DNA from: a virus
Lineage: Duplodnaviria; Caudoviricetes
DNA: 33,905 nt
IMG/VR virus record: IMGVR_UViG_3300032236_001084
Span: 1 to 33,905 of that record
Strand: one strand, 5' to 3'
Shown: positions 17,587 through 33,905 of the stretch, piece after piece
Layout: every line of letters begins with the position of its first letter
Numbering within the stretch: the stretch's first letter is position 1
Notes under the pieces: model-generated
Seen by the model: only the letters and a program-made list of their open reading frames with translations
What the model was told of the DNA's origin: nothing
Databases searched by the model: none
Translations under genes and position numbers: made by a program

Positions 17587-18348
17587 ATGATAAAGCTGGT
17601 AAATTTATTACGAGAAACTAAACAAGGTCCAAAAGCAATATTTTTAGCTGGACCTGCAGGTGCCGGTAAATCTTTTATAACTAAACAAATTTTACCTGTT
17701 GGACATTTTAATGTTATTAATAGTGATGATACCTATGAAGAGTTATTGAAAGCATCTGGTTTAGGTATGAAACAAAAAGACTTTGGTCCTGAAGAGCTAT
17801 CTCAAGCAGCTAAGTTACAAGGTCAAGCACAGAAAACTACAAGAGAAAAATATACCAAAGCTGTAGAGGATCGTGATGATATTATTGTAGACGGTACAGG
17901 TGCAGCATCTGGTCCGTTACTTAAAAAGAAAGCAGAGCTAGAAGAACTTGGTTATACTACATTTATGGTAATGATCTACGTATCACCTATGACATCTTTA
18001 GAGAGAAATGCAGGTAGAGATAGATCTTTAATGCCTGCTATTGTACTAAGGACTTGGAGAGATGTTAACAAGAACATACAGACATATGAACAAGCTTTTG
18101 GTGATAACTTTATACTACTAAATAATGATCCTGCAGGAGCAGATAAGTCTTTTGATCCGGCAATTGTAAAACGTCGATTCTTTGATACATCAACCGGTAA
18201 AGGTAAAGAAAAGACTCCTGAAGAGATGATGAAGAGAGCACAAGAGGCAGCAGACCTAAATCAGAGTATAACAGATATATTAAAATCAGAACCCGAAGCA
18301 ATTGATATCGGGCAAGCAAAAGCAAAAATACAAGCATTTATAGGATGA
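17587..18348 (+). CDS. P-loop kinase (zeta-toxin / AAA_33-like) with MIKL leader
   Basis: KAIFLAGPAGAGKS Walker A; VINSDD; IIVDGTG; ERNAGRDR lid; N-terminus MIKLVNLLRE. Confidence 0.85.
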   Translation: MIKLVNLLRETKQGPKAIFLAGPAGAGKSFITKQILPVGHFNVINSDDTYEELLKASGLGMKQKDFGPEELSQAAKLQGQAQKTTREKYTKAVEDRDDIIVDGTGAASGPLLKKKAELEELGYTTFMVMIYVSPMTSLERNAGRDRSLMPAIVLRTWRDVNKNIQTYEQAFGDNFILLNNDPAGADKSFDPAIVKRRFFDTSTGKGKEKTPEEMMKRAQEAADLNQSITDILKSEPEAIDIGQAKAKIQAFIG

Positions 18349-20057
18349 TAGATATACACAAACTTGGAAACCTTATCGCAGAAGAGATAACAAACGAACC
18401 TGGCGTATGTTTTTACCCGGGTGGATTTAAGCCACCACACAAAGGTCACTTTGAAGTAGCTAAAGACATATCGTCACGTAACTACATCACACATCTCTAT
18501 GTTATTATCTCACCAAAAGAGAGAGATGGTATAACTGCCGAACAGAGTTTAAAGGTATGGCAGACTTATCTAGCAGCACAACCTCTACCAAAGGTATCTG
18601 TTAGTATTTCTAAGACACAGACACCTGTTAAGGATATCTACGATTATATCGCCGATCACCCTACTGAGAAGCCAATCTATGTAATGGGAGGTAAAGACGA
18701 GGTAGATGATCAAGGATACTTTAAATCACTTCAAAAAGCATTTGGAGAAAGAGTTGTACCAATTCCTGTAGAAGAAAAGTTTGGTAGAATATCAGCTAGC
18801 TACGTTAGAGGTCTATTAAGATCAGGTGATATAGTAGGATTTGAAGATACCATTCCAGAAGCAGCAAAGAATAAAGGATATGCCGAGCCTATCTTTAAAC
18901 TACTGGCTACTACAATTAAGCAACCTGTAATTAAAGAAGGTGAAGAACCACATGAAGATGAAGCAATGTCTATCATTAGCAAGTATATTCAATGGTGTAA
19001 GCAAATGTTGGAGATTGAAGAACTACCACATATCGAATTCGTGTACGATACAAGTTTTACTGCACAAAATCATAGCTTTGGTGGATATACTCCTGAAGAT
19101 CACTCTATACTAATTTCAATAGCAAATAGGAATTTAGCAGATGTATTAAGAACTTTAGGACATGAACTAGTTCACCACCGTCAAAACGAAACAGTTGGTA
19201 TAAATCCTGAAGATGGTAAAACTGGTACAGATGTAGAAAATGAAGCTAATGCGGTAGCTGGAATGCTGATGAGAACATTTGGTAAACAAGACCCACGTAT
19301 TTATAATATCTTTATACCTGAAGTATCAACTACATTACAAGAAGATACTAGATCAGTAGCTAGGAAGCTATTAACAGCACTGCATGAAATGCGATTAACA
19401 GTAAAAAATGCAGCAGAAGTACATGGTGACCTACACCACGGGTATTTTAAGGTTGGAGATATAGAGTATAACTACACTATCCTAGAAACAGGTAATCCGT
19501 ATGATGATGGCGGTACATTTTACAATGTGGGTTTTGAAGAGGTAGACTCATCTGCACCTGGTGCTGGTCTTCCAACCGGTAATGCAGGAGGTAGGAATTA
19601 CATTAAGATCCTGAGTACAATGTATAAAGTTGTTCTAAATTTTACTGCAACAGTTAAACCTGACTACATTGCTATTGCAGCTTATGGAGATAGTAATTAC
19701 TTTAATATCTACAACGATTTAACAAAATCTAATCCAGTTCCTGGGTATTCTAGAAAAAGTCTTGATTTATTTTTTACAAGTAAAAGCGGGCAGAGAGGTA
19801 GAGCTATAGTATTAAAAAAGAATCAAGATAAAGCACAATTAACAGAATCTAAAGAGCATTATGTACCTTATATGTATTCTGCTCAAGGCTTTGGTTGCCA
19901 TGTTTGTAAGTTTTATTACAAAGAGAAAGGTACGCATATGTGTAGTAATCCTGACTACAAAGCTTATAAAGGTACTAACGAATTATTAGATAACGAAGGT
20001 AATAGTATTAAAGACCCATCAAAATGGTGTTCTAACTGGTTTAAACCTAAAGGATAG
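18345..20057 (+). CDS. Multidomain protein: HxGH nucleotidyltransferase + HExxH zincin-like domain + unknown domain + C-terminal 4-Cys domain
   Basis: YPGGFKPPHKGH and ISASYVR (cytidylyltransferase-like/HIGH); RTLGHELVHHRQ...ENEANAVAG (metallopeptidase-like); C-terminal GCHVCKFY...MCSN...KWCSNWF. Confidence 0.8.
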   Translation: MIDIHKLGNLIAEEITNEPGVCFYPGGFKPPHKGHFEVAKDISSRNYITHLYVIISPKERDGITAEQSLKVWQTYLAAQPLPKVSVSISKTQTPVKDIYDYIADHPTEKPIYVMGGKDEVDDQGYFKSLQKAFGERVVPIPVEEKFGRISASYVRGLLRSGDIVGFEDTIPEAAKNKGYAEPIFKLLATTIKQPVIKEGEEPHEDEAMSIISKYIQWCKQMLEIEELPHIEFVYDTSFTAQNHSFGGYTPEDHSILISIANRNLADVLRTLGHELVHHRQNETVGINPEDGKTGTDVENEANAVAGMLMRTFGKQDPRIYNIFIPEVSTTLQEDTRSVARKLLTALHEMRLTVKNAAEVHGDLHHGYFKVGDIEYNYTILETGNPYDDGGTFYNVGFEEVDSSAPGAGLPTGNAGGRNYIKILSTMYKVVLNFTATVKPDYIAIAAYGDSNYFNIYNDLTKSNPVPGYSRKSLDLFFTSKSGQRGRAIVLKKNQDKAQLTESKEHYVPYMYSAQGFGCHVCKFYYKEKGTHMCSNPDYKAYKGTNELLDNEGNSIKDPSKWCSNWFKPKG

Positions 20058-20692
20058 TGAAATTAATTAATACAGGTAATACTTTTGATCCAACTCCGTA
20101 TTGGACTAATCCTATTAAGAGGTATAAAACACCGCAAATAACTTGTGTGGATTTATTTGATACTAATGGCTACGATTTAACTGATTTAGAACAGGATTAC
20201 GCAGAAGTAAATACACCAGCCGAAGATCATAGATATAAGAGAGCCATAAAACGAACTTGGTTTGCAACCAAAAGACCAATTGTAGAAGGAGTACACATAA
20301 ATCATGCGCTACTATTTGAAAGAAAAGGATACAGCGGTACAGCTTTAGAACAGTTAAAGGATTGGAGTAATGAGATGCCAATCGTAAGCAAACTAATAAA
20401 GATACGTTCAAAGTGGGGAATAGACCTAGCAATAGATTATGTTGATAGAGACGGTAATGCATTTGAGGTATTTCATTATGAATGGGATGATTTCGACTAT
20501 GAAGCTGTGATGAGAGCTAAGACTAAAATCGAAGAATTAGCATTATCAACAGATTGGGATGCAGCAGCTAAAGAACTATTAGAAAGAAGAAGTGAATGGG
20601 CTTCTTTACCTTTCTTTGAACAGAGTGATTGGAAATGCAAATTCTTTAATATAGAACCTGAAAAGTTCAAAATAATAATTTGGAATGATTAA
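20057..20692 (+). CDS. Hypothetical phage protein (GTG start)
   Basis: 211-aa ORF overlapping the upstream TAG; W/D/E-rich (DLFDTNGYDLTDLEQ, INHALLFERKGY, HYEWDDF); no motif recognised. Confidence 0.7.
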   Translation: MKLINTGNTFDPTPYWTNPIKRYKTPQITCVDLFDTNGYDLTDLEQDYAEVNTPAEDHRYKRAIKRTWFATKRPIVEGVHINHALLFERKGYSGTALEQLKDWSNEMPIVSKLIKIRSKWGIDLAIDYVDRDGNAFEVFHYEWDDFDYEAVMRAKTKIEELALSTDWDAAAKELLERRSEWASLPFFEQSDWKCKFFNIEPEKFKIIIWND

Positions 20693-21272
20693 ACTAATAG
20701 ATTTACTAAAAGAAGCTAAACAGGTAGGTATACTATACCACTACACTAATTACGATAGTGCTATCAAGATAGTAGCTCAAGATCAATTAAAATCAGATTA
20801 TGCTGTAGATAGTACTAAAGATAATTTGAAATACAACATCTCCTTTACTAGAAATAAAAATTTTGCTACTGTTAAAAGAAGTTTAATGTCCGGTGCTCCA
20901 AGAGTTAGATTTACTGTTGATGGAGATAAATTAAGTGATAAGTATAAAATAGAACCTTTTGCACAGAAAGGATTTGAAAAAGCAAAGAAAAACAGTTTTG
21001 AAGCAGAGGAGAGAATTGTATACAATAAACCTTTTTCAATAGAATTATCAAACTACTTAATTAGTGTAGATATAGTTGAAGAATTAAAAGATCCAGGAAA
21101 ATATAAGTATAGTTCTGATTGGGATATGTATGGAGAAGATCAAAAAAGGTTTATTGAACTGTGTCAAAATAAGAACATAAATATAAATGTAATTGATCAA
21201 CATGGTAATTCTATTCCTTTTAAACAAAAAAAACAAACAAAAGGATTTTTATCAAAATTATTTAATAAATAA
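20685..21272 (+). CDS. Putative ADP-ribosyltransferase-fold protein with MIKL leader
   Basis: LYHYT...ISFTRN...EAEERI spacing matches the ART three-motif layout (H/R, S-x-T/S, E-x-E); leader MIKLIDLLKE. Confidence 0.5.
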   Translation: MIKLIDLLKEAKQVGILYHYTNYDSAIKIVAQDQLKSDYAVDSTKDNLKYNISFTRNKNFATVKRSLMSGAPRVRFTVDGDKLSDKYKIEPFAQKGFEKAKKNSFEAEERIVYNKPFSIELSNYLISVDIVEELKDPGKYKYSSDWDMYGEDQKRFIELCQNKNININVIDQHGNSIPFKQKKQTKGFLSKLFNK

Positions 21273-21328
21273 ATGTTAAACATATCTGAAAAAGATGCAT
21301 TTTTAGATAAATAATGAAATAGTATAAC

Positions 21329-21838
21329 ATGATTAAATTAATGAGTTTACTGAAAGAAGTAGAAGAAGCACCTAAAAAACTTTACTGTGATTTAGATGGT
21401 GTCTTGGTTGATTTCGAGAAAGGTTATGAAAATTTAACTGGAAAGAAAGCTCCCGGTGTTAATTCCGGGTATAATGCTAAAGAGTTTTGGGAGCCAATCA
21501 CAAAAGCAGGGGTGCCTTTCTGGTCAAACCTAGATTGGATGCCTGATGGTAAAGAATTATGGGATCATATTAAGAAATTCCATCCAAGCATCTTATCGGC
21601 ACCATCAAGAGATGAATCATCGAGAATTGGTAAGAAGGTATGGATGAAAAAACATCTACCTGGTGTGGATTTACATCTAAAAGCAGCAGAACAAAAGCAA
21701 GATCTAGCCAAAGAAGGTGATATCTTAATCGATGATAGGATAGATAATTGTAGAAGATGGCAACTAGCAGGAGGAACAGCAATACATCACACATCAGCTG
21801 CTAATACAATCCAGAAATTAAAAGATTTAGGTTATTAA
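21329..21838 (+). CDS. HAD-family 5'(3')-deoxyribonucleotidase (NT5C-like) with MIKL leader
   Basis: LYCDLDGVLVDF (DxD motif I), FWSNLDWMPDG, ILSAP, GKKVW, ILIDDR..N...W...GG.AI.H. Confidence 0.88.
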   Translation: MIKLMSLLKEVEEAPKKLYCDLDGVLVDFEKGYENLTGKKAPGVNSGYNAKEFWEPITKAGVPFWSNLDWMPDGKELWDHIKKFHPSILSAPSRDESSRIGKKVWMKKHLPGVDLHLKAAEQKQDLAKEGDILIDDRIDNCRRWQLAGGTAIHHTSAANTIQKLKDLGY

Positions 21839-21857
21839 TTAATAGAAATAAACCGTT

Positions 21858-22433
21858 ATGCAAAGAGAAACTGTACTCAAGAAAGAGTTTAGTCAAAAAG
21901 ATGTACAAAGAGCAAGAAACCTGTTAACCGGTAATGCTTCGGCAGCTACTTCATTACAGGCCGGATACGAAAAATCTAGACAAGACTATAAAGAAGGTGA
22001 TGTTTGGGAAGAACAAGGTAGAACTTGGACAATTAAAAATGGGTTAAAGCAAACTGTTACTAAGTTTGATTCTCTAAAAAAGTTACTAGTACTACCTCTA
22101 GCATGTCCAAACTGCGGTAAAGCATTAAAACTTACTGAATTAAATAAAAAAATGTATGCCATTCACCAAACCTGCTTTGATTGCGTTATTGAAAACGAAG
22201 CAAAATTAAAGCGTGAAGGTAAGTTCGAAGCATACCAAAAAGCTATCCTAAACGGTAATAAAAATGCCGTACTAGAAGATCTAGAAAGAGCTCTAGATGG
22301 GTGGTTAAACGAAACTACTTCCTTTGTATCCGAAGATGGAGTAGTAGAGGAGTGGAGTAAAGTCAAACTTAAATCAGAAGACTTTGATGGAGTTAGAGAA
22401 GAAATAAAAAAGGCCAAGGAACAGGAGATCTAA
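21858..22433 (+). CDS. Hypothetical protein with CxxC...CxxC zinc ribbon
   Basis: EGDVWEE.GRTWTIKNG; CPNCG...CFDC. Confidence 0.7.
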   Translation: MQRETVLKKEFSQKDVQRARNLLTGNASAATSLQAGYEKSRQDYKEGDVWEEQGRTWTIKNGLKQTVTKFDSLKKLLVLPLACPNCGKALKLTELNKKMYAIHQTCFDCVIENEAKLKREGKFEAYQKAILNGNKNAVLEDLERALDGWLNETTSFVSEDGVVEEWSKVKLKSEDFDGVREEIKKAKEQEI

Positions 22434-22435
22434 AC

Positions 22436-22442
22436 TATTTAT
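22436..22442 (+). promoter_or_regulatory. Putative late promoter motif TATTTAT
   Basis: aacTATTTATtat in the intergenic gap before ATG 22465. Confidence 0.5.
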
Positions 22443-22464
22443 TATCAAAATAGATAGATATTTT

Positions 22465-23106
22465 ATGCCAGCAACTTCTCAAGCACAGCAACACACTGCA
22501 GCAATCGCATTAGCAGCAAAAGAAAAACATAACACTAAAGGTCTAAAAGGTCCTGCCAAAGCAATGTCACATATGGCAAAGGGTGAACTAGAAAAATATG
22601 CTCACACCAAGCTAAAAGGCCTACCTAAACACGTACAGAAAGAATCAGTACTAGGTACTCACCCGGTTGATACTATTGAATTCTGGGTTGTACAGAAACC
22701 AACCTCACACGAATCTTCTATCCAAGATATCGTTACCTCATGTGACCCATTCCAATTTGCAGATATGTGTAGATCCGGTCTAGCTCCTGAAGCTGTACAT
22801 GGATTTTATACAGAAGAAGAAGATGCTGAAAAAGCGGGTAAACAGTTATTAACTGATATGTACCATACTGCTAAATCTCTAGAAGAAAAGAAAGAAGAAG
22901 TAACAACTAAACTTCAAAAAACTATTGATAAGCTTCAAAAGAAAGCTGAAGAGCATATGAGAATGGTTAAGAAAGAACCAGACCAGGCCGATCATCACCA
23001 CGAAGAAGCAGAAAAGGTAATGGCACGTATTAAAGAATTACGTGGTAAACATAAGATGGTAGAAACAGCTAAGAAACAATTAAAACCTTTAGAAGAAGAT
23101 AAATAA
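22465..23106 (+). CDS. DUF3008-like N-terminal domain fused to a charged coiled-coil region
   Basis: MPATSQAQQ..A.IALAAK...LKGPAKAM..M...ELEKYA.TK.KGLP.HV resembles DUF3008; K/E-rich C-terminus. Confidence 0.65.
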   Translation: MPATSQAQQHTAAIALAAKEKHNTKGLKGPAKAMSHMAKGELEKYAHTKLKGLPKHVQKESVLGTHPVDTIEFWVVQKPTSHESSIQDIVTSCDPFQFADMCRSGLAPEAVHGFYTEEEDAEKAGKQLLTDMYHTAKSLEEKKEEVTTKLQKTIDKLQKKAEEHMRMVKKEPDQADHHHEEAEKVMARIKELRGKHKMVETAKKQLKPLEEDK

Positions 23107-23108
23107 TT

Positions 23109-23471
23109 ATGGAAGAATTTGCACAATTTATCTCAATGTTATTTGCATCGAGAACACAAGCTCACATTTTTCACCTCCAAACAGATTCTTATGCAGCACA
23201 TAAAGCTCTACAAGAATACTACGAAGAGATTATAGAAATCGCCGATGGCCTAGTAGAATCGTATCAAGGTAGATATGGTATTTTAAGAGATTATAGCGGT
23301 CAGGCTACATTCAAAGAGGATAATCAACCTCTAGCATATTTTGAAGCACTGGATAAGTATGTAGAGACAACAAGACAAGTAATCCCACAAGATTCTTATA
23401 TTCAAAACGAAGTGGATACTTTAGTAGCTTTAATTGAAAGTACTAAGTATAAGCTTAAATTCTTACACTAA
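23109..23471 (+). CDS. Ferritin/Dps-like four-helix protein
   Basis: QAHIFHLQTDSYAAHKALQEYYEEI...DGLVESYQG parallels the Dps ferroxidase pattern (H-W/L...H...D...E); 120 aa. Confidence 0.75.
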   Translation: MEEFAQFISMLFASRTQAHIFHLQTDSYAAHKALQEYYEEIIEIADGLVESYQGRYGILRDYSGQATFKEDNQPLAYFEALDKYVETTRQVIPQDSYIQNEVDTLVALIESTKYKLKFLH

Positions 23472-23472
23472 T

Positions 23473-23793
23473 ATGTTACTAGAAACTGATTCATATTGCC
23501 CATCTTGTCTAGCTGAATATCTTATTGAACACAAAGATAAGTTAGTAGAGGCTGAATATCATGGACGTAAAGTGACTCTAGGTAAACCATTTTTAACACC
23601 TGGTGGACCTAAGAAGAGATCTGTTTATGTTAAGAATGCAAAAGGTAATGTGGTGAAGGTAAACTTTGGTGATCCAAACATGAGAATTAAAAAACATATA
23701 CCTGCAAGACGTAGATCCTATAGAGCAAGACACCATTGTCAAAACCCAGGACCACGAGATCGTGCAAATTATTGGAGCTGTAAATTTTGGTAA
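23473..23793 (+). CDS. Small basic phage protein (YWSC C-terminal family)
   Basis: ATG at 23473; EAEYHGRKVTLGKPF..GGPKK..VYVKN.KGNVVKVNFGD..M.IK...RR.SYRARH.C..PG....ANYWSC; K/R-rich. Confidence 0.75.
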   Translation: MLLETDSYCPSCLAEYLIEHKDKLVEAEYHGRKVTLGKPFLTPGGPKKRSVYVKNAKGNVVKVNFGDPNMRIKKHIPARRRSYRARHHCQNPGPRDRANYWSCKFW

Positions 23794-24440
23794 AATGTAT
23801 TACGTGTATTTATTAGTAGATCCTCAAGATAACCAGCCGTTCTATTGCGGAAAGGGTAAAGGAAGTAGATGGAAATCACATTTAGGGTACTGGAGTGGTA
23901 ACGGAAAAAATAGCAGGTGTGAGAATAAAATAAAAAGCCTAAGAGCGAAAGGAATTGAACCGGAAGTGAGATTCTTAGTTGAAAATATAGAAGAAGAGGA
24001 AGTAGCCTACAAGATAGAAGAGAGCTATATTAGAGAGCATTTTGATAGTTTAGTAAATCTTAAAATAGAAGCTAAGCCACCAAGTAGAAAAGGAAAACCG
24101 AGCTGGAATAAAGGAATTAATATGCCAAAAGAGTTTAGTGATAGGCAGAGTGGAAGATTGAAAGAGGAGTATAGAACCGGTAAGAGATCTAGTTGGAGTG
24201 GTAGATTATCAGAAGAAGAGAAGCATGCCTTTTATTCTAAAATGGCATTATGTAAAAAAAATTTTACAAGTAAAAGAAAAACTAAGGTATACTGTGAGCA
24301 GCTAGATAAACTATTTGAAAGCCAGACTGAAGCAGCAATTCAATTAGGATTAAGACAGGGGGATATTTCAAATGTGCTTGCTGGGAGACAAACGACAACA
24401 AAAGGTTACACTTTTAAATACATATAGAGCTTGGTAAAAT
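23787..24440 (+). mobile_element. Homing-endonuclease insertion bounded by 10-bp direct repeat TTGGTAAAAT
   Basis: TTGGTAAAAT at 23787-23796 and 24431-24440, flanking the GIY-YIG ORF. Confidence 0.65.
23795..24427 (+). CDS. Free-standing GIY-YIG homing endonuclease with NUMOD/HTH DNA-binding modules
   Basis: ATG 23795; YYVYLLVDP..NQPFYCGKG...R...H and E..AY.IE..YI...LVN (GIY-YIG); PSWNKG (NUMOD3-like); KLFESQTEAA.QLG..QGDIS.VL.GRQ.T.KGYTFKY (NUMOD1/HTH); visibly more purine-rich than its neighbours. Confidence 0.88.
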   Translation: MYYVYLLVDPQDNQPFYCGKGKGSRWKSHLGYWSGNGKNSRCENKIKSLRAKGIEPEVRFLVENIEEEEVAYKIEESYIREHFDSLVNLKIEAKPPSRKGKPSWNKGINMPKEFSDRQSGRLKEEYRTGKRSSWSGRLSEEEKHAFYSKMALCKKNFTSKRKTKVYCEQLDKLFESQTEAAIQLGLRQGDISNVLAGRQTTTKGYTFKYI

Positions 24441-24449
24441 AACACTACA

Positions 24450-24893
24450 ATGAACGCATATAACTTTTTTAAATTCTTAGAGAAAACAGATAATAGAAAA
24501 ACACCTTTTTTAGTAAAATTAGCATTAGCACCTGAAGAATTAACACCGGAAGAGCTACATATTAAGAGAAGTTTGATATTATCTCCGTTATCGGATTTTT
24601 ATTTTGAAGAACCAATATCACTACCTGATAATATGACTATTGAGGGTAACTTTATTTTAGATGGAGTATATGTAGACGGTGGGATATTACCAAACGGATT
24701 AGTAGTAAAAGGAAATCTAGAAATAGATTTTTGTTACATTACAGAACTTCCTTCAGATATGATAATAGGTGGAGATGTTCATATAGAATCAGATGAGTTA
24801 GTTCAAACTTACTACGGATCACCAGAAGAAGTAAAAAGAGCTTGTCCAGGTATAAAAGGTAAAGTTTATATGCCTGAACTTGATTATAGGTAA
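24450..24893 (+). CDS. Degenerate LRR-like repeat protein, paralog of 30383 and 30855 proteins
   Basis: N-terminal FFKFLEKTD...PEELTPEEL; repeats ISLPDNMTIEGNF / LPNGLVVKGNL / ITELPSDMIIGGDV; C-terminal EEVKRACPGIKGKVY. Confidence 0.75.
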   Translation: MNAYNFFKFLEKTDNRKTPFLVKLALAPEELTPEELHIKRSLILSPLSDFYFEEPISLPDNMTIEGNFILDGVYVDGGILPNGLVVKGNLEIDFCYITELPSDMIIGGDVHIESDELVQTYYGSPEEVKRACPGIKGKVYMPELDYR

Positions 24894-24908
24894 TACAGAT
24901 AGAGAGTA

Positions 24909-25280
24909 ATGATTAAACTTACTAATATATTAAAAGAGATTCTTGAAGAGAAAGAAGACCGATGCTTAAGAATTGCCCGTCGTAGATACGATAAGCCTTC
25001 TGCTTATAGATCCGGTGCAATTGTGAGATGTAGGAAAGGTGAGATTTGGAAAGACTTAAAAGAAGAAGAATCTCTACATAAATGGTTTTCAAGAAAAGGT
25101 GGTGAAGGACATAGAGGCTGGGTGGATTGTAATACCTGTCATGAAGTAGATGGTAAGAAAAAATGTAAACCATGTGGAAGACAGGATGGTGAGACTAGAG
25201 CAAAATATCCTTCCTGCCGACCAACACCATCACAGTGTAGTAGATCAGGTAAAGGTAAAACTTGGGGCAAAACAAAATGA
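24909..25280 (+). CDS. Basic Cys-rich protein with MIKL leader
   Basis: MIKLTNILKE; PSAYRSGAIVRCRK; ESLHKWF; GWVDC; KPCGR; YPSCRPT. Confidence 0.75.
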   Translation: MIKLTNILKEILEEKEDRCLRIARRRYDKPSAYRSGAIVRCRKGEIWKDLKEEESLHKWFSRKGGEGHRGWVDCNTCHEVDGKKKCKPCGRQDGETRAKYPSCRPTPSQCSRSGKGKTWGKTK

Positions 25281-25465
25281 TAAAGCTAATTGATATACTT
25301 ACAGAAGTAAAAGAAGGAATTGATGATCCAGTTAAACCTGGTATTCTAAAGAATAGATTAGGAAAGCTTTCTTGTACAAGAGTAAGATCTGCAAAAGCTA
25401 AACTAAAAAATAAGGGTACTCATTACGCAAAAGCATTACAGAGATATTTAAACTACCACTGTTAA
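25277..25465 (+). CDS. Small basic protein with MIKL leader (62 aa)
   Basis: ATG at 25277 (ATGA overlap with the upstream stop) gives MIKLIDILTEVKEGIDDPVKPGILK...ALQRYLNYHC. Confidence 0.75.
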   Translation: MIKLIDILTEVKEGIDDPVKPGILKNRLGKLSCTRVRSAKAKLKNKGTHYAKALQRYLNYHC

Positions 25466-25469
25466 AACT

Positions 25470-25817
25470 ATGATAAAACTAACTGAATTAATATTAGAAG
25501 ATAAGACTGTACCGGAAAAAGCTTTTGAAGAATTTGCCGATAAGAGATTTGGCGGTGCAGAAAAGATAGCCGATAACGCTAAAGAAAAAGGTGGACCTTC
25601 TATGTTAACTTACCATCATTTTAAAGTAAAACTTCCTTATTATAAGAAGGCATCTGAAGGTAAATTAGATTTAGAAAAAGCAGAAGAAGAGTATCAAGAT
25701 CTTGTAAAAGAACTATACGATACTACTAAGAAGAAAATGAATATCGAACAGATAGCTTTTCAGAAATTAGTTGGACGTATTGAAGTTTTAGGTGAATTAC
25801 TTATAAAACATAGATAA
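25470..25817 (+). CDS. Hypothetical helical protein with MIKL leader
   Basis: MIKLTELILE; 115-aa ORF; no motif recognised. Confidence 0.7.
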   Translation: MIKLTELILEDKTVPEKAFEEFADKRFGGAEKIADNAKEKGGPSMLTYHHFKVKLPYYKKASEGKLDLEKAEEEYQDLVKELYDTTKKKMNIEQIAFQKLVGRIEVLGELLIKHR

Positions 25818-25818
25818 G

Positions 25819-26712
25819 ATGATAAAGCTAATAGATTTACTAAAAGAATGTGTTATCGCTGCAGTACATATAGACGGTGATACTGTATTAACTAAAAATA
25901 GAGATAGAGGCTATACTGCTAAAATACGTATTGTTCATGAATTAATAGACGGTGTTGAAGTAGTATATTGGTTAGATGAAGATACAGACTGGTGTGAAGG
26001 TATGAATGAACATGGTATTGGTATTGTAAATTCAAGTCTACTAGTAGGTAAAGATGAAAAAGAAAGCGATAAGATAGAAAAGAAGCAAAAGGGTAATCAC
26101 GATGCTACTGAGAAGAAAATTACATCAACTGACGGTCTTAAGATTAGACATGCATTAAAACAAAACTCTATTAGAGATGCAATTGAATCAGTAGTATCTT
26201 ATGTAGGTAAAGATAAGAAAGACGTAGGTGTAAAAGGACACGTAATGGTAGCTACACCAAAAGTTAGTTATAATGTTGAATCTACAAGTAAAAATACACC
26301 TATTATAACTAAGTTAGATAGAGAAGAGAAAGCTCACACAAGATCAAACCATGGTGTATCTCACGAAGATGCAGGTTATACTCAAGGTGTTAAAAGAAGA
26401 TCATCACTATCAAGAAGAGATTTAGCTGCAAGAAACCTAGATGAAGTAGAAGATTGGAATGAAGTGTTAGATGCAATGGCTAAACAAACTGAATCTGATC
26501 CTTTTATGAATCCATTCAGACATGATAATATTTATAAAATGCGTACTATAGGTCAAATCATGATGAATTTAAACAAACTTAAATTCGTATACAGAGGTAC
26601 ATCAGCACACTCTGAATTTAAAGGATACGACAATAGATTACCAGATGATTACGAACCAAAGATAGAAGTAATAATTTTAGACTCCGTTAAACCAAGAGAT
26701 TCAGATGATTAA
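25819..26712 (+). CDS. Ntn-hydrolase (Cys-nucleophile; choloylglycine hydrolase / C45 / NRDE-like) with MIKL leader
   Basis: After the leader: C-V-I-A-A...KNRDR, WCEGMNEHGIGIVNS, RSNHG, S..R. These are typical of Cys-type Ntn hydrolases. Confidence 0.8.
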   Translation: MIKLIDLLKECVIAAVHIDGDTVLTKNRDRGYTAKIRIVHELIDGVEVVYWLDEDTDWCEGMNEHGIGIVNSSLLVGKDEKESDKIEKKQKGNHDATEKKITSTDGLKIRHALKQNSIRDAIESVVSYVGKDKKDVGVKGHVMVATPKVSYNVESTSKNTPIITKLDREEKAHTRSNHGVSHEDAGYTQGVKRRSSLSRRDLAARNLDEVEDWNEVLDAMAKQTESDPFMNPFRHDNIYKMRTIGQIMMNLNKLKFVYRGTSAHSEFKGYDNRLPDDYEPKIEVIILDSVKPRDSDD

Positions 26713-27136
26713 ACTATTAGACATATTAGAAGAATCTACTGAGCCAACTATTTTCTATTTCGCATATGGTTCTAATATGGAGCATAAAAGAATGAAACAT
26801 AGATGTCCAGATGCTGTAAAATATTCCGATGGAGTATTATTTGGATGGAAAAGAGAGGTGAATGAAAAAGGTGTAGATACAATAGTAAGAGGTGAGAGTA
26901 GCGATGATCATGTAGAAGGTGTGGTATGGTTGATAACTAAATCTGATCTAGAAACTCTTGATAAAAGAGAAGGTGTAAATATAGGTGACTACATTAAACG
27001 TCATCTTGAAGTAGATACACCGGGTGAAGATAAAATCTGCTTAGTATACATTGCCACAAACAGTAAACCAGGTACAGCAAAAGCTAACTATAAAAGAATA
27101 GTTAAAAAAGGAGAGGAAGAGAATAAAATTCGGTAG
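26705..27136 (+). CDS. Gamma-glutamylcyclotransferase (AIG2-like) with MIKL leader
   Basis: YFAYGSNM, VEGVVWLI...LETLDKREG....Y, CLVY, Y..IV..G. Confidence 0.9.
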   Translation: MIKLLDILEESTEPTIFYFAYGSNMEHKRMKHRCPDAVKYSDGVLFGWKREVNEKGVDTIVRGESSDDHVEGVVWLITKSDLETLDKREGVNIGDYIKRHLEVDTPGEDKICLVYIATNSKPGTAKANYKRIVKKGEEENKIR

Positions 27137-27137
27137 C

Positions 27138-27145
27138 TATTTATA
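27138..27145 (+). promoter_or_regulatory. Putative late promoter motif TATTTATA
   Basis: cTATTTATAa upstream of ATG 27159. Confidence 0.5.
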
Positions 27146-27158
27146 ATTAAAGGAATAC

Positions 27159-27494
27159 ATGATAAAGCTGGTAGAACTATTTAATGAAGAAGCATCTGCT
27201 ACAACCTATCAATTGATCGGTAAATTAACTGTTAATACAACTAAACGTACTCTAGGTGATATCCTAGCTGATATAAGAGCTATTGAAGGAGTGACAATTG
27301 TAAGAGGTGAAGGACAACCTAATGATGTCCCAACCAATAATCCGTCTTATACTGAAGAATTGAAAGTAAAGATTGATCCGTATCCATTTACCTCCTTTGG
27401 TAAACAGCAAGCAGAACAGATTATAAGTCTAATTAAACACGTAAATGGTGTAACCACTTTTATACCATCACAATCAGTACGTAAGATAAAGTAA
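27159..27494 (+). CDS. Small alpha/beta hypothetical protein with MIKL leader
   Basis: MIKLVELFNEE; ILADIRAIEGVTIV...IKHVNGVTTF internal pseudo-repeat suggests a ferredoxin-like fold. Confidence 0.7.
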   Translation: MIKLVELFNEEASATTYQLIGKLTVNTTKRTLGDILADIRAIEGVTIVRGEGQPNDVPTNNPSYTEELKVKIDPYPFTSFGKQQAEQIISLIKHVNGVTTFIPSQSVRKIK

Positions 27495-27498
27495 CAAC

Positions 27499-27506
27499 TA
27501 TTTATA
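27499..27506 (+). promoter_or_regulatory. Putative late promoter motif TATTTATA for the endolysin
   Basis: aacTATTTATAt upstream of ATG 27522. Confidence 0.5.
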
Positions 27507-27521
27507 TAAAACAAATTAAAC

Positions 27522-28145
27522 ATGGATTTAAGTAAATTAAAGGGTAAAATCCCTCAAGCAGTTTTAGATATACTGCCTCCTGCATTTGAAAAGTATGGTG
27601 TAAACACTAACCTTAGAGTAGCACATTTTCTAGCTCAAATAGCTCATGAGAGTGGTGATTTCACAATTAAGACAGAAAGTATGAACTATTCAACTCCTGC
27701 AAGATTAGTAGAAATTTGGCCATCAAGATTTAGTTTAGATGGAGCTGGCGGTAAGAAAAATGCTCATGACTATGTAAAAAACCAAGAAAAACTTGCTGAA
27801 GCAGTTTACGGTGGTAGAATGGGTAATATCAATCCTGGTGATGGTTTCCGTTTCCGTGGAGGTGGTTGGTTGCAGTTAACTGGTAAGGATGCTTATAAAG
27901 GATATGCTGCTTATCTAGGTAAGACAGTAGAAGAAACAGCTGATCTATTACGTTCAGATAACCATTATGCATTAGATGCTGCTTGTTGGGAATATACAAT
28001 CAACATGAAACTGAATCCAGTAGCAGATCAAGGTGCAACTGATGATGTTGTAAAAGTAATTACTAAGAAAGTTAATGGAGGTTATATTGGATTAGCAGAT
28101 AGAACTGCTCATTTCCATAAATTCTATAATGCTTTAACTGCCTAA
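27522..28145 (+). CDS. Glycoside hydrolase family 19 (chitinase-like) endolysin
   Basis: RVAHFLAQIAHESGDF...E, YGGRMGN...GDGFRFRGGGWLQLTGKDAY, ITKKVNGGYIGLADR. Confidence 0.93.
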   Translation: MDLSKLKGKIPQAVLDILPPAFEKYGVNTNLRVAHFLAQIAHESGDFTIKTESMNYSTPARLVEIWPSRFSLDGAGGKKNAHDYVKNQEKLAEAVYGGRMGNINPGDGFRFRGGGWLQLTGKDAYKGYAAYLGKTVEETADLLRSDNHYALDAACWEYTINMKLNPVADQGATDDVVKVITKKVNGGYIGLADRTAHFHKFYNALTA

Positions 28146-28147
28146 AT

Positions 28148-28477
28148 ATGACACTTAAACAATACTTAAGAGAATGTGGTGAATGTGAAAGACAATCTAC
28201 AGATTGGACTCAAGGCCACAACCATGCCGGTAAAATGGCTAAAGGTGAATTAAGAGATCTAATCATGAATGCCGTAGAGGTATATAAAATGTTAGGTCCA
28301 AATGACGAAATTCCGGGTTGGATCGCATCGTATATTACCTTATCTTCAGACTATATACATTCAGTGAAAGAATCGTTAGCAGAAGAAGCAACAGAGATGG
28401 ATAATGACTGGGAAGAAGACAACTACGAAGAAGAACCAGTACCGACTGAATATATTACAGAAAGAAAAAGAAAGTAA
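28148..28477 (+). CDS. Hypothetical acidic protein
   Basis: MTLKQYLRE start; GKMAKGEL...L...DEIPGWIASYITLSSDYI.SV; acidic tail. Confidence 0.7.
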   Translation: MTLKQYLRECGECERQSTDWTQGHNHAGKMAKGELRDLIMNAVEVYKMLGPNDEIPGWIASYITLSSDYIHSVKESLAEEATEMDNDWEEDNYEEEPVPTEYITERKRK

Positions 28478-29028
28478 TGCAAACAAAGCAAGTATTAAAA
28501 TATCTTATTGAACAGGAAGTTCGTAAGTACTTAAGAGAAGGTGAAGATACAACAACACCTGGACCATTAAAACCTGCTAGATCTTTTGAAGAAGATCCTG
28601 TACAGTTTATATTAAGTAAGTACCCTTCTCTAAGAGAGACTCTTGCTATGTTATTAACTAATGATTACGCTGATTATATTACCGGTGTCTACGTAATTGC
28701 ACCTAAGCCCACAACATTCAAAATTGTCCTACATAATGGCCAATCTTTTTATTTAAGATACTTAGGTAGATCTTATGAAGCCAAAGTTGAAGCTAAGAGA
28801 TACTACCTACTAACCCTAGGTGAGAGACAAAGAGCTACTTTAGCAATTGCACATCTTTTAGAATTAGGTGCACCAATCAATGTAAAGGGACCAGAAACAG
28901 AGTTAGCCCATAACGAAACACCTGCAGAAGCTGGAGGAGGTGCACCAGCACCGCCAAGTGGAGAACCTGAACCTCCTACACCTGAAGTATCACCAAATCA
29001 AGCAGAAGAAGAAAAGACTGAATCTTAA
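28477..29028 (+). CDS. Hypothetical protein with Pro/Glu-rich C-terminal tail
   Basis: LKYLIEQEVRKYLRE N-terminus; APKPTTFKIVLHNGQ.FYL; disordered PE-rich tail. Confidence 0.7.
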   Translation: MQTKQVLKYLIEQEVRKYLREGEDTTTPGPLKPARSFEEDPVQFILSKYPSLRETLAMLLTNDYADYITGVYVIAPKPTTFKIVLHNGQSFYLRYLGRSYEAKVEAKRYYLLTLGERQRATLAIAHLLELGAPINVKGPETELAHNETPAEAGGGAPAPPSGEPEPPTPEVSPNQAEEEKTES

Positions 29029-30383
29029 TGATAAAACTAATAGATATACTAAGAGAGGTTTCTTCTCTAAACTCAACAACTCTACTCAAACCCATACCCG
29101 GGTACGTAGATAGAGGTGAAGTTCTATTGAAAAAAATAGAAGGAGAAGAACCTATCGCTTTAGTTAACGGTGACGAAATTGTAGTTAATCCTGAGACCAG
29201 CTCTACATTTATTGATTTACTAAGAGGTAAGAAGTATAAGGAGTTAACTAATGTTAAGTTCTATGATATAGCTGGACTAGGACATAAACTTAGTGAACTA
29301 GCTAAGACTCAAGAATTTGGAAGTAGTAAAGGTATTAGCGGCGGTGCTACACAGACTGCTTTACAGGAATCAGCACAGTGTTTAGTCCTAGCACTTCGTT
29401 ACCATAAAGGTAGTGATTTAACAGAATCAGATCTAGAAGAAGAAGAAAGTCTAAAAGACGTAGCAAGTGACGTAGAGGTATCTGAACCTATTGACAAAGT
29501 TATTGAGTTTATTGAGAATAGTACATCATGGCAATCTACAATGGTTAGTACTGCTAATGTAGTTGCAGGTAAGTATCATAAGAGCTATAAATTCTATAGA
29601 GGAAAGGGTATCGTTACTAAGATAGATCATGCAGCTAAAAAAGCTTTATCCCAAGCAAAAGTAGGTCTAAACATTAATAAATGGAATCCATCTGATATTT
29701 GGATGGCTACCGAAGATGTTAATGAAGAAGACTTTCCTGAAGATATAGATGAGTTAAATGATTTACTTTTAGAGCTTTTTAGAGAAGAAAGACTGATCGG
29801 ATTATCACTTAAGAAGTGTGTATCAAGCTGTAAATCAGAGGTTAATAACCTATCTAAAGAAGCAAACGAAAAGAAAAAAATCACCTATGAAGGTATAAAA
29901 GATAAGAACGAAAACATCTTCAAAGCAAAAGATATCTACCTTATTACAACCAAAGGAACAGTTCAATTTAGAAACTTTCAGAACATAACCGGATGGATGG
30001 GTGAGATAAAAGGTGAAGGAGCAGCAGGTGGTAAGATAGGGTTTGAAGCAATAAATGCTATGTTAACTTCTATTACGAATACACCGCTATCCTCACAGCA
30101 AGAAGTATTAACACAATGCGGTAAACCAAGTAAGGAGTTTATTAATCACTTCTATAAACACTACCAGGCTACAGATCTAGACCCTAAGGTTAGCTTAGAA
30201 GAATTTACAAAACAGTTCACAGAAGCCGGATTAGGAAGTAGAACAAGTAACTATTTTAACATGGAACTATTAGGTCAACTAGATAATCTAGACAAAGAAG
30301 ACCAGGATAGTTTTGCAAGAGATTTATTTAATTACGCTAGCTCTAACACAGAATATTCTTCTGTATTTGTAAAAATATCATAA
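29028..30383 (+). CDS. Putative PD-(D/E)xK restriction-endonuclease-like protein with MIKL leader
   Basis: TALQESAQC helix, NKWNPSDIW and LIGLSLKK resemble an E...PD...SxK catalytic arrangement; leader MIKLIDILRE. Confidence 0.5.
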   Translation: MIKLIDILREVSSLNSTTLLKPIPGYVDRGEVLLKKIEGEEPIALVNGDEIVVNPETSSTFIDLLRGKKYKELTNVKFYDIAGLGHKLSELAKTQEFGSSKGISGGATQTALQESAQCLVLALRYHKGSDLTESDLEEEESLKDVASDVEVSEPIDKVIEFIENSTSWQSTMVSTANVVAGKYHKSYKFYRGKGIVTKIDHAAKKALSQAKVGLNINKWNPSDIWMATEDVNEEDFPEDIDELNDLLLELFREERLIGLSLKKCVSSCKSEVNNLSKEANEKKKITYEGIKDKNENIFKAKDIYLITTKGTVQFRNFQNITGWMGEIKGEGAAGGKIGFEAINAMLTSITNTPLSSQQEVLTQCGKPSKEFINHFYKHYQATDLDPKVSLEEFTKQFTEAGLGSRTSNYFNMELLGQLDNLDKEDQDSFARDLFNYASSNTEYSSVFVKIS

Positions 30384-30844
30384 TGGCTACACATATAAAA
30401 CATTTTTTTGATTTTCTAGAAAAGAAAGATGGTAGAAAAAAGCCTCTTACATATAAGCTTATTCATGATCCTGAATCTCTAACACCTGAAGATTTAGAAG
30501 TAGACGATACTCTTTGGTTAACCGGCACTAAAATTACTTCTCTACCTCAAGGATTAAAAGTAGGTGGAGAACTTTGGTTATCTGGTACTAAAATCACTTC
30601 TTTACCTCAAGGTTTACAGGTAGTTAAAGGTCTTTGGTTAAGAAATACTCCAATCACTTCTCTACCTCAAGGTTTACAGGTAGGTGGAGGTCTTTATTTA
30701 CAGGATAGTAAACTCACTTCTTTACCTCAAGATTTGCAAGTAGGTGGGAATCTTTATTTAAGAAATACTCCATTTTCTAAAAAATACACTAAAGAAGAAA
30801 TTAAGCAAATATACCCGGGTATAAGAGGTGGTATCTATTTATAA
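30383..30844 (+). CDS. LRR-like 20-aa repeat protein
   Basis: Four to five copies of ITSLPQGLxVGGxLxLxxT; N-terminal HFFDFLEKKD...PESLTPEDL. Confidence 0.85.
   Translation: MATHIKHFFDFLEKKDGRKKPLTYKLIHDPESLTPEDLEVDDTLWLTGTKITSLPQGLKVGGELWLSGTKITSLPQGLQVVKGLWLRNTPITSLPQGLQVGGGLYLQDSKLTSLPQDLQVGGNLYLRNTPFSKKYTKEEIKQIYPGIRGGIYL
30494..30773 (+). repeat. 60-bp tandem coding repeat
   Basis: t(c/t)tacctcaa recurs at 30541, 30601, 30661 and 30721. Confidence 0.9.
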
Positions 30845-30854
30845 AAATACAGTA

Positions 30855-31454
30855 ATGGACGACGTACAACTAAAACATTTTTTTGATTTTCTAGAAAAGA
30901 AAGATAGTAGAAAAACACCTCCCGGGGTTCTGACTAGATATAAACTCCTCTATGAACCTGAATCTCTAACACCGGAAGATCTGGTTATCAAAGGTGATCT
31001 TAATTTAAGAGATACTAAAATCACCTCTCTACCACAAGGTTTAAAAGTAGGTGGATGGCTTAATTTAAAGAATACTGGTATTACGTCTTTACCTGATAAT
31101 TTAAAAGTAGGTGGAAGTCTTGATCTAGACCGTACTAAAATCACCTCTCTACCTCAAGGTTTAAAAGTAGGCGGGTATCTTAGTTTAACTGATACACCAA
31201 TTACTTCCTTACCTGATAATTTAAAAGTACCGTGGGAACTATCTTTACAAGGTACTAAAATAACCAGACTTCCTAAAGGTTTGGTTGTTGGTGGCGGAAT
31301 CTTTTTAGGTGAGCAGGTGACTGATATACCGACAGATATTCAAGCAAAGGGCGGTATTCACTACCATAAGGCACCATTTGGTGAGAAAATCAAAGGTTAT
31401 ACAAGAGAAGAACTAAAAAAAATATACCCCGGTGTGTATAGTTTTTGGAAATAA
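30855..31454 (+). CDS. LRR-like 20-aa repeat protein (tandem paralog)
   Basis: ATG 30855 (MDDVQLKHFFDFLEKKD); five to six ITSLP(QG/DN)LKVGG repeats; TATTTATA at 30836-30843 upstream. Confidence 0.85.
   Translation: MDDVQLKHFFDFLEKKDSRKTPPGVLTRYKLLYEPESLTPEDLVIKGDLNLRDTKITSLPQGLKVGGWLNLKNTGITSLPDNLKVGGSLDLDRTKITSLPQGLKVGGYLSLTDTPITSLPDNLKVPWELSLQGTKITRLPKGLVVGGGIFLGEQVTDIPTDIQAKGGIHYHKAPFGEKIKGYTREELKKIYPGVYSFWK
30981..31320 (+). repeat. 60-bp tandem coding repeat with alternating 120-bp higher-order unit
   Basis: Units at 31021/31141 (LPQG) alternate with units at 31081/31201 (LPDN). Confidence 0.88.
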
Positions 31455-33187: not shown

Positions 33188-33905
33188 ATGTCCGAAGCAA
33201 ATATAAAAGAAATAATCAGACAGGAATTCGTTAAGTGTGCCACCGATCCGGTATACTTTATGAAAAAATATTACTGGATTCAACATCCACAACGTGGTCG
33301 TATCCAATTTAACCTGTATCAATTCCAGGAACAAGTCCTACATCTATTCCAAAGTAAAGAATACCTTGTAATCAACAAATCAAGACAGTTAGGTATATCA
33401 ACTCTATCTTCTGCTTATGCATTATGGTTGATGTTGTTTCAAAAAGATAAGAACATCCTTGTAATTGCAACCAAGCAAGAAACGGCCAAGAACATGGTAA
33501 CCAAGATTAGGTTTGCCTATGACCAATTACCTTCGTGGTTGAAAGTAAAAGCAGTAGAAGATAATAGATTAAGTCTAAGACTAGCAAATGGATCACAGGT
33601 AAAAGCGGTAGCAGCATCACCAGATGCAGGTCGTTCTGAAGCAGTATCATTATTACTACTGGATGAAGCAGCTTTTATCGATAACATTGATACAATCTTC
33701 ACTGCCGCTCAACAAACCTTAGCAACCGGAGGTCAATGTTTTGCTATCTCAACACCAAACGGTACAGGTAACTGGTTTCATAAGACATATACCAACGCAC
33801 AAATCAAAGAAAACAAATTTGTACCCATATCTCTACCCTGGACTGTTCACCCTGAACGAACACAAACTTGGAGAGATGAACAGGATAAGACCTTAGGAGT
33901 AAGAG
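33188..33905 (+). CDS. terL: Terminase large subunit (T4 gp17-like), 3'-truncated by the window (not in supplied ORF track)
   Basis: MSEANIKEIIRQEFVKCATDPVYFMKKY...FNLYQFQ...INKSRQLGIST (Walker A variant)...LLLLDEAAF (Walker B)...ISTPNGTGNWF. Confidence 0.96.
   Translation, partial: MSEANIKEIIRQEFVKCATDPVYFMKKYYWIQHPQRGRIQFNLYQFQEQVLHLFQSKEYLVINKSRQLGISTLSSAYALWLMLFQKDKNILVIATKQETAKNMVTKIRFAYDQLPSWLKVKAVEDNRLSLRLANGSQVKAVAASPDAGRSEAVSLLLLDEAAFIDNIDTIFTAAQQTLATGGQCFAISTPNGTGNWFHKTYTNAQIKENKFVPISLPWTVHPERTQTWRDEQDKTLGVR

Follow-up and report, generated by a model that had tools for sequence, protein, structure and literature searches.

How does a phage amidase come by the free N-terminal cysteine that an Ntn enzyme needs when that cysteine lies ten residues inside its own reading frame? 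The question is raised by ORF 25819-26712 (+; 297 aa) of the window, by which we mean the whole stretch of 33,905 nucleotides analysed here, a 33.9-kb piece of a large T4-like freshwater phage (GC 0.35) whose genes include baseplate, primase, endolysin and T4-like terminase. Translation from ATG 25819 opens MIKLIDLLKE-CVIAA, with Cys11 encoded by TGT 25849-51 and preceded by GAA (Glu10). An earlier note on this DNA had described the product as an Ntn hydrolase with its nucleophile at residue 11 and no in-frame start right before it, and had proposed that cleavage after Glu10 activates a zymogen. The placement of the Cys is borne out by the sequence, as codons 2-10 contain no ATG, GTG or TTG and the codon just ahead is GAA, which rules out an internal start; the motifs claimed in that note (C11-V-I-A, K26-N-R-D29 and E60-G-M-N-E-H-G66) are all present, and the comparisons below largely support the zymogen interpretation at the sequence level. 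An assembly artefact is ruled out as well by the gene's 90% cluster of 7 members and by the copies in loci L002 and L003, which are 96-98% identical.

The mechanism that we propose is that an Ntn-fold amidase is made as a precursor whose T4-type leader would place it in the prohead core, that the S77 head protease would there cut after Leu-Lys-Glu10, freeing the Cys11 amine and arming the enzyme, and that the armed amidase would be ejected with the DNA into the next cell. Cutting of the leader by the head protease would seem highly probable; that the amidase is a capsid-cargo precursor opened in this way is probable, and its packaging and ejection we hold to be reasonably likely.

Predicted fold and family of the amidase

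An AlphaFold2 model (81-sequence alignment; pLDDT 91.6, with residues 1-10 at ~51) has the alpha-beta-beta-alpha sandwich of Ntn enzymes, and its best Foldseek match is isopenicillin-N acyltransferase (IAT; 2x1c, E 2e-9). A wider structural search returned NAAA and CV2077 at Z 20.4, acid ceramidase at 19.7, IAT at 19.5, and bile-salt hydrolase and C69 dipeptidase at 17.0, with an rmsd of 3.1 over 205 residues against NAAA. Many of these alignments open at model residue 11 opposite the nucleophile of the solved enzyme (residue 143 in acid ceramidase, residue 2 in bile-salt hydrolase), chain positions 1-2 of penicillin V acylase and bile-salt hydrolase align with residue 11, and a predicted strand (E12-18) comes right after Cys11, which puts the nucleophile where the mature chain enters its first strand, as in Ntn hydrolases. 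An Ntn fold with Cys11 at the nucleophile position, which the earlier note had named as the point to be confirmed by structure prediction, is thus what the model predicts. NAAA, acid ceramidase, bile-salt hydrolase/penicillin V acylase, C69 dipeptidase and TANGO2 all share this fold (Z 15-20, aligned from residue 11), and since the top matches tie within ~1 Z and differ in substrate, the fold does not name a substrate.

Sequence profiles place the query amidase (P0001) close to the C45 family. It has no match in Pfam or PHROGs and falls short of the curated cut-offs of PF03417 and NF040521, reaching with the latter 34 of the 85 bits required and matching only from profile position 92; PF03417 is matched at E up to 0.1 by 46/81 aligned members, and its cut-off is narrowly passed by two long relatives. 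Like C45/IAT enzymes, the amidase has a Cys nucleophile behind a pro-segment, but it shares only 12-14% identity with them, lacks the ~90-100-residue N-terminal alpha subunit, has Glu rather than Gly at P1, and is predicted to be activated in trans, not by self-cleavage. A P1 Gly occurs in 6/408 relatives, which is 7% of the 86 A-class sequences described below. On the strength of the profile score and the absent alpha subunit we regard the query, by profile and model, as C45-like and outside C45 proper.

A search of PDB sequences with alignment A1 gave no matches, BFVD held two close uncharacterised viral models and otherwise only distant TANGO2/amidase matches, and the ESM Atlas matched viral hypothetical clusters, one with 10% PF03417. 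A scan of GTDB with one narrow pattern found 2 amidase loci, both in MAGs that also carry a phage protease, and a cellular origin of the family is not supported. Across 408 distinct sequences K26, R28, D29, E60, G61, N63, E154, N177, H178 and R199 are nearly invariant (Table 1); N177 and R199 we take to be the likely oxyanion Asn and amine-stabilising Arg, by equivalence with the Asn/Arg of bile-salt hydrolase.

Table 1. Features of the amidase gene and its surroundings, in window coordinates unless a locus is named.
Feature	Position	Strand	Basis
Leader M1-E10 (MIKLIDLLKE), predicted to target the capsid, with L-K-E protease motif at its end	25819..25848	+	Sequence; pLDDT ~51 over residues 1-10
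Cys11, predicted N-terminal nucleophile	25849..25851	+	Invariant in alignments A1-A5; structural alignments against solved Ntn chains begin here
Predicted mature Ntn-hydrolase domain, 287 aa, C45/NAAA beta-chain-like, without alpha subunit	25849..26712	+	AF2, Foldseek, Z, partial NF040521 match
K26-N-R28-D29 active-site motif	25894..25905	+	K, R, D in 408/408, partly by construction, K-x-R-D being the anchor for placing Cys
E60-G-M-N63-E-H-G66 motif	25996..26016	+	E60 407/408, G61 408/408, N63 407/408
S176-N177-H-G and S195-S196-x-x-R199	26344..26415	+	N177 407/408, H178 404/408, R199 406/408
Three upstream ORFs with MIKLxxLLxE-type leader (24909-25280, 25277-25465, 25470-25817)	24909..25817	+	Leader sequence
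Other leader-bearing ORFs: 17587-18348 (P-loop), 20685-21272, 21329-21838 (5'-nucleotidase-like), 27159-27494, 29028-30383	17587..30383	+	
Gamma-glutamylcyclotransferase-like gene, leader MIKLLDILEE, possible partner cargo	26705..27136	+	Pfam AIG2_2/GGACT
GGCT-like neighbours of amidase genes	window 26705-27136; L049:9527-9947; L349, L367, L374, L376, L378, L381		
Large terminase start, T4-like	33188..33904	+	Window ends inside gene

Junction classes and the head modules that accompany them

Glu stands directly before the Cys in the query and in all of the best 120 of 478 homologues, behind leaders of 5-168 residues and widely different sequence. Conservation of this junction is far beyond chance in the aligned sequences, and its exact register is forced by the need of an Ntn enzyme for a free N-terminal Cys. 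We then pooled the earlier matches, the best 150 of 451 cluster representatives and the fetched loci, and anchored 520/530 records, leaving out 10 (three loci truncated by the contig end, and seven proteins with an insertion or with a start downstream of the Cys). The resulting 408 distinct mature sequences comprise 278 with Glu before the Cys (E class), 86 with Ala, Ser or Gly (A class), 43 in which the initiator Met precedes it, and one other (MESLGQ-C). P3 is Ile, Leu or Val in 269/278 of the E class and Lys or Arg in none, and is Lys or Arg in 86/86 of the A class, while P4-P10 vary across the classes and leader lengths run from 4 to 1557 residues. The earlier note had anticipated that homologues would carry the Cys either after Met1 or after an xLxE leader; that expectation stands with the one exception among 408, and a third class, [KR]x[ASG]-Cys, is added to it. 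When metagenomes were scanned with the A-class alignment, 68 further distinct sequences were obtained (a few of them identical to earlier loci), 67 with [KR]x[ASG] and one with Met. Base composition is ruled out as the origin of K-x-A, the A-class loci spanning GC 0.30-0.69.

Leaders of six residues or fewer occur in 5/170 E-class and 26/77 A-class proteins, and such very short leaders may be without targeting information; the minimal ones (MVEE-C, MINE-C and MNKEA-C) keep just the cut site. At the other extreme, many A forms are embedded in polyproteins as long as 2792 aa. Partners identified in the 58 scanned of 68 proteins longer than 480 aa include TopoIB (11), a poly(A)/CCA polymerase head (5), 2H phosphoesterase (3) and PAP2 (2), among others, and are mostly nucleic-acid repair or modifying enzymes. 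In one A-class polyprotein, P0212, the amidase is accompanied by a poly(A)/CCA polymerase domain and by a domain of phosphatidylserine decarboxylase, another enzyme activated by cleavage. Domains of ~80-100 residues stand ahead of the cut site in several clades (P0025, P0027, P0125, P0133, P0152 and P0165 in the E class; P0162, P0200 and P0245 in the A class), have no Pfam match where scanned, and would come free as separate cargo. A-class phages also show recurring N-terminal tags, LRSKLI/IIxLA...KxA and RVAxR[YF]...KxA, which are candidates for a second capsid-targeting system (e.g. L044:9553-9898, L048:13911-14283, L050:14003-14480, L049:977-5183; P0135, P0193, P0194, P0206). The long A-class chains resemble the polyvalent phage proteins, which are injected and combine similar nucleic-acid repair and modifying domains in multi-enzyme chains with ART, GNAT and 2H partners (PMC5512222, available text), but differ from them in that the chemistry of the amidase domain demands an internal cut for its activation; the main text of that paper makes no use of the term NTN.

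The window stops ahead of the head module (S77 protease, scaffold and gp23), which was read instead in the near-relative G022, a genome collinear with the window and 89-97% identical to it. G022 encodes Peptidase_S77 and Gp23, its scaffold holds 22 [ILV]xE sites, and the N-terminal region of its major capsid protein contains LLE and VVE; the T4 protease gp21 cuts after I/LxE (PMC12991175, available text). Two local features of G022 are a ~700 bp insertion between the amidase and GGCT genes (28243-28952, compared with window 26698-26716) and a PhoH-like P-loop gene (45917-47257) that is apparently interrupted by an intein, to judge by the terminal motifs.

Among the records searched, 19 of them metagenome contigs covered in part, S77 protease was found in 9/11 of the E class, 2/5 Met-Cys phage records and 0/9 of the A class, where its absence is soft because the viral records are small fragments with a completeness of 6-27%. 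What A-class loci have is a phrog_18299/2774 protease alongside a phrog_2522 capsid; the protease has relatives in phage G (gp19) and in phages of Rhodococcus, Gordonia and Mycobacterium. This protease occurs in 5/9 A-class records (one of them the search query's own), 0/10 E-class and 0/5 Met-Cys records, and within 12/68 loci of the A-alignment scan, none of which contained a T4-type protease or capsid. Two A-class scaffolds have 14 and 9 K-x-A sites, many of them KKA-S, and the A-class proteases themselves carry [KR]TA at residues 5-7. From the scaffold repeats we infer that this second, phage-G-gp19-like protease cuts at K-x-A; a measured specificity was not found in the literature, including the available text of PMC12484599. 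Phage G head-region proteins gp13, gp19 and gp20 (L400) have KTA or KIA near their N-termini, which agrees with K-x-A, as a match not quantified against background.

Met-Cys forms occur in giant viruses and in some S77 phages (G010, G011). The divergent giant-virus clade has an NCLDV capsid in 5/7 records searched, and S77 was not found in 5 giant-virus Met-Cys records, a blank search being soft evidence. By these comparisons, junction class follows the head module of the virus.

The only cultured carriers found are the Chryseobacterium phages MA9V-1 (gene 182, WIC41446.1, annotated as hypothetical) and MA9V-2, whose proteins are homologues at 38% identity with the junction FLNE-Cys. In MA9V-1, Asn occupies P2 in 20/40 [ILV]xE sites of the protease-scaffold fusion and the start of the capsid protein. 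The fusion itself (MA9V1_151; OR050627.1 126501-130544) joins an S77 protease to a scaffold-like region (~1347 aa) with 37 [ILV]xE sites and a strong P2 Asn preference. Particle proteins of MA9V-1 have been resolved by SDS-PAGE only (PMC10537231, available text), and virion proteomics was not found in the available text of PMC10537231 or PMC13414440. Flavobacterium phage immuto (Immutovirus) has the S77 protease closest to that of G022 (46.6%) and homologous neighbouring genes; the amidase has no match in it, which makes the gene accessory. The main text of PMC7824862 mentions neither NTN nor C45, and a literature search on Ntn hydrolases, phages and head proteases, which covered few subscription papers and may have passed over supplements that list the family, returned no description of it.

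The leader, its proposed role in loading and the probable freeing of Cys11

By pattern, 10/42 called genes of the window begin with a MIKLxxLLxE-type leader, so that a short tag ending in (I/L)xE is carried by ten otherwise unrelated ORFs (Table 1). The T4 tag has ten residues, with targeting positions at 4 and 7 and processing positions at 8 and 10 (PMC9026906, available text). The window leader likewise has 10 residues with the hydrophobic 4/7 and 8/10 pattern and a cut motif at 8-10, and the tag is common to several unrelated cargo genes, as in the T4 IPI-III/Alt system, with an S77 gp21-like protease and a gp23-type capsid in the collinear relative. Removal of propeptides is known in SPN3US and T4 (PMC10052503, PMC9958956, available text of both). 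The likeness has two limits: a cut here would create a catalytic N-terminus in exact register, whereas T4 cargo, as described in the available text, is trimmed with no catalytic residue unmasked, and the amidase family is found with a second head system too, one not based on S77. In a comparison of leader-to-domain spacing, few homologues were found for the other leader-bearing cargo (GGCT, nucleotidase, ATPase). A promoter scan of the window was at chance level (13 vs 13.8).

Several further genes of the window deserve mention. The gene listed from TTG 25262 (25262-25465) has the leader MIKLIDILTE from ATG 25277, the likelier start. A GIY-YIG/NUMOD homing-endonuclease-like gene (23762-24427) overlaps the end of 23434-23793. 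Three paralogous-looking proteins without leader (24450-24893, 30383-30844 and 30828-31454), two with weak leucine-rich-repeat matches, have a similar protein adjoining the amidase in six other loci. There are also a small Dps/ferritin-like protein (23109-23471; phrog_858, DUF5856) and a nucleotidyltransferase-like protein of 570 aa (18345-20057).

A tree of 237 sequences (80% dereplicated, mature domain minus Cys, FastTree, midpoint root) has 9 changes of junction label, compared with at least 89 in 100 shuffles; because kin share labels, this falls short of proving co-evolution. The tree holds six separate Met-Cys groups and two A groups, the latter poorly separated (support 0.35-0.40) and so representing one or two E-to-A switches, in a direction that depends on the root. 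With only one or two such events, E-A covariation carries little weight when independent cases are counted. No loci of the second A-clade (the P0172, P0221 and P0250 group) turned up in a search for them.

Could the enzyme instead open itself, by ordinary Ntn self-cleavage through an N-to-S acyl shift at Cys11, the leader serving only for targeting and Glu forming part of the self-cleavage site? Some Ntn enzymes, such as glycosylasparaginase and taspase, need an acidic residue before the nucleophile, which counts for self-cleavage, and the E and A classes also track the enzyme's own tree. The nearest profile is that of the 'C45 family autoproteolytic acyltransferase/hydrolase', and IAT self-processes at Gly102-Cys103 (PMC2692852, available text). 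Yet P1 shifts from Glu to Ala, Ser or Gly and P3 from hydrophobic to basic without a matching change in conserved charged columns, none of which sets E forms apart from A forms (all three classes have 25 columns in common). Were P1 recognised by the enzyme itself, E and A forms should have different pockets, one to accept Glu and the other Ala; the lack of a separating charged column argues against self-cleavage, as do the match of both junction motifs to repeats in the scaffolds of the same phages and the missing C45 alpha subunit, and we consider self-cleavage very unlikely.

A head protease might also open an amidase that is not virion cargo, as a late timer tied to head maturation, with the enzyme acting in the producing cell. 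The minimal leaders that retain the cut site alone are compatible with such a timer, as are the Met-Cys forms, which require no head, and the action of phage prohead proteases can extend, in the cell, to substrates that do not belong to the head (PMC12991175, available text). The window leader, however, is a full 10-residue tag shared by ten unrelated ORFs and matching the T4 targeting pattern, and action confined to the producing cell appears decidedly improbable. As to why the Cys is capped, the earlier note held that the leader keeps the enzyme inactive until it is inside the maturing head. The capped Cys has comparative support; latency as a required lock has not fared as well and is probably a consequence of the loading tag. 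If latency were a selected safety lock, active enzyme would be harmful to the producing cell or to head assembly until sealed in the capsid, and the exact keeping of the junction in 364/408 sequences would fit. The exact register is nevertheless explained by Ntn chemistry alone, some forms of the six separate Met-Cys groups belong to S77 phages, and two downstream neighbour families are common to four Met-Cys and 47 E-class loci, all of which makes a selected lock unlikely. The forms in G010 and G011 show gating to be apparently dispensable and suggest that the enzyme can be constitutive, and several lineages have likely dropped the loading tag for Met-Cys. Because Met-Cys forms occur in S77 phages, some of them in the same gene neighbourhood, we read latency as a by-product of loading rather than as a lock. 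The reading that we prefer remains that of loading and activation by the head: with a tag that ends in a T4-type cut motif here and has the other ending in phages with the other protease, capsid maturation likely both loads the amidase and switches it on.

Possible substrate and wider meaning

Invariant residues of the amidase are mostly charged or polar, which suggests that a polar amide would fit better than a long acyl chain. Our first guess, possible and still doubtful, is a polar amide or isopeptide bond, such as would link a gamma-glutamyl or small peptide tag to a protein of host or phage, with early removal of the tag acting as counter-defence; host lipid amides, proposed because the top fold matches include NAAA and ceramidase, come next and seem quite unlikely. 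In two lineages that are unrelated, a GGCT-like gene lies beside the amidase or no more than ~1.2 kb away: the window clade, where it has a leader, and a low-GC A (K-x-A) subgroup, where it has none. There are only 13 distinct GGCT ORFs across 347 loci, and the substrate guess is weak for that reason.

Ntn hydrolases usually free their own catalytic N-terminus or depend on Met removal; bile-salt hydrolase is activated by Met removal, and the Met-Cys amidase class resembles it. Activation in trans by a viral maturation protease, if true, would couple catalysis to capsid assembly. We offer tentatively a broader reading, in which a virus-wide Ntn family would outsource its activation to the capsid protease of its own phage, with [ILV]xE-Cys alongside S77 and [KR]xA-Cys alongside the type of phage G and the cluster-C mycobacteriophages. 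The enzyme would be freed even from the middle of a polyprotein (up to 2.8 kilo-residues), be injected active, and remove a host amide or isopeptide mark common enough for giant viruses to keep a Met-Cys enzyme. Were this so, the junction would itself report where an uncharacterised head-protease family cuts (K/R-x-A), and the system would offer a route to capsid delivery of proteins with an exact N-terminus.

As the chemistry fixes the cut at one bond, the amidase family provides sequence-level evidence that the widespread LxE leaders of large Bacteroidota phages are processed, and a K/R-x-A specificity with a second targeting tag is predicted for another group of large phages. That a virus-restricted enzyme is conserved in giant viruses as well as in unrelated phages suggests a host target so far unrecognised.
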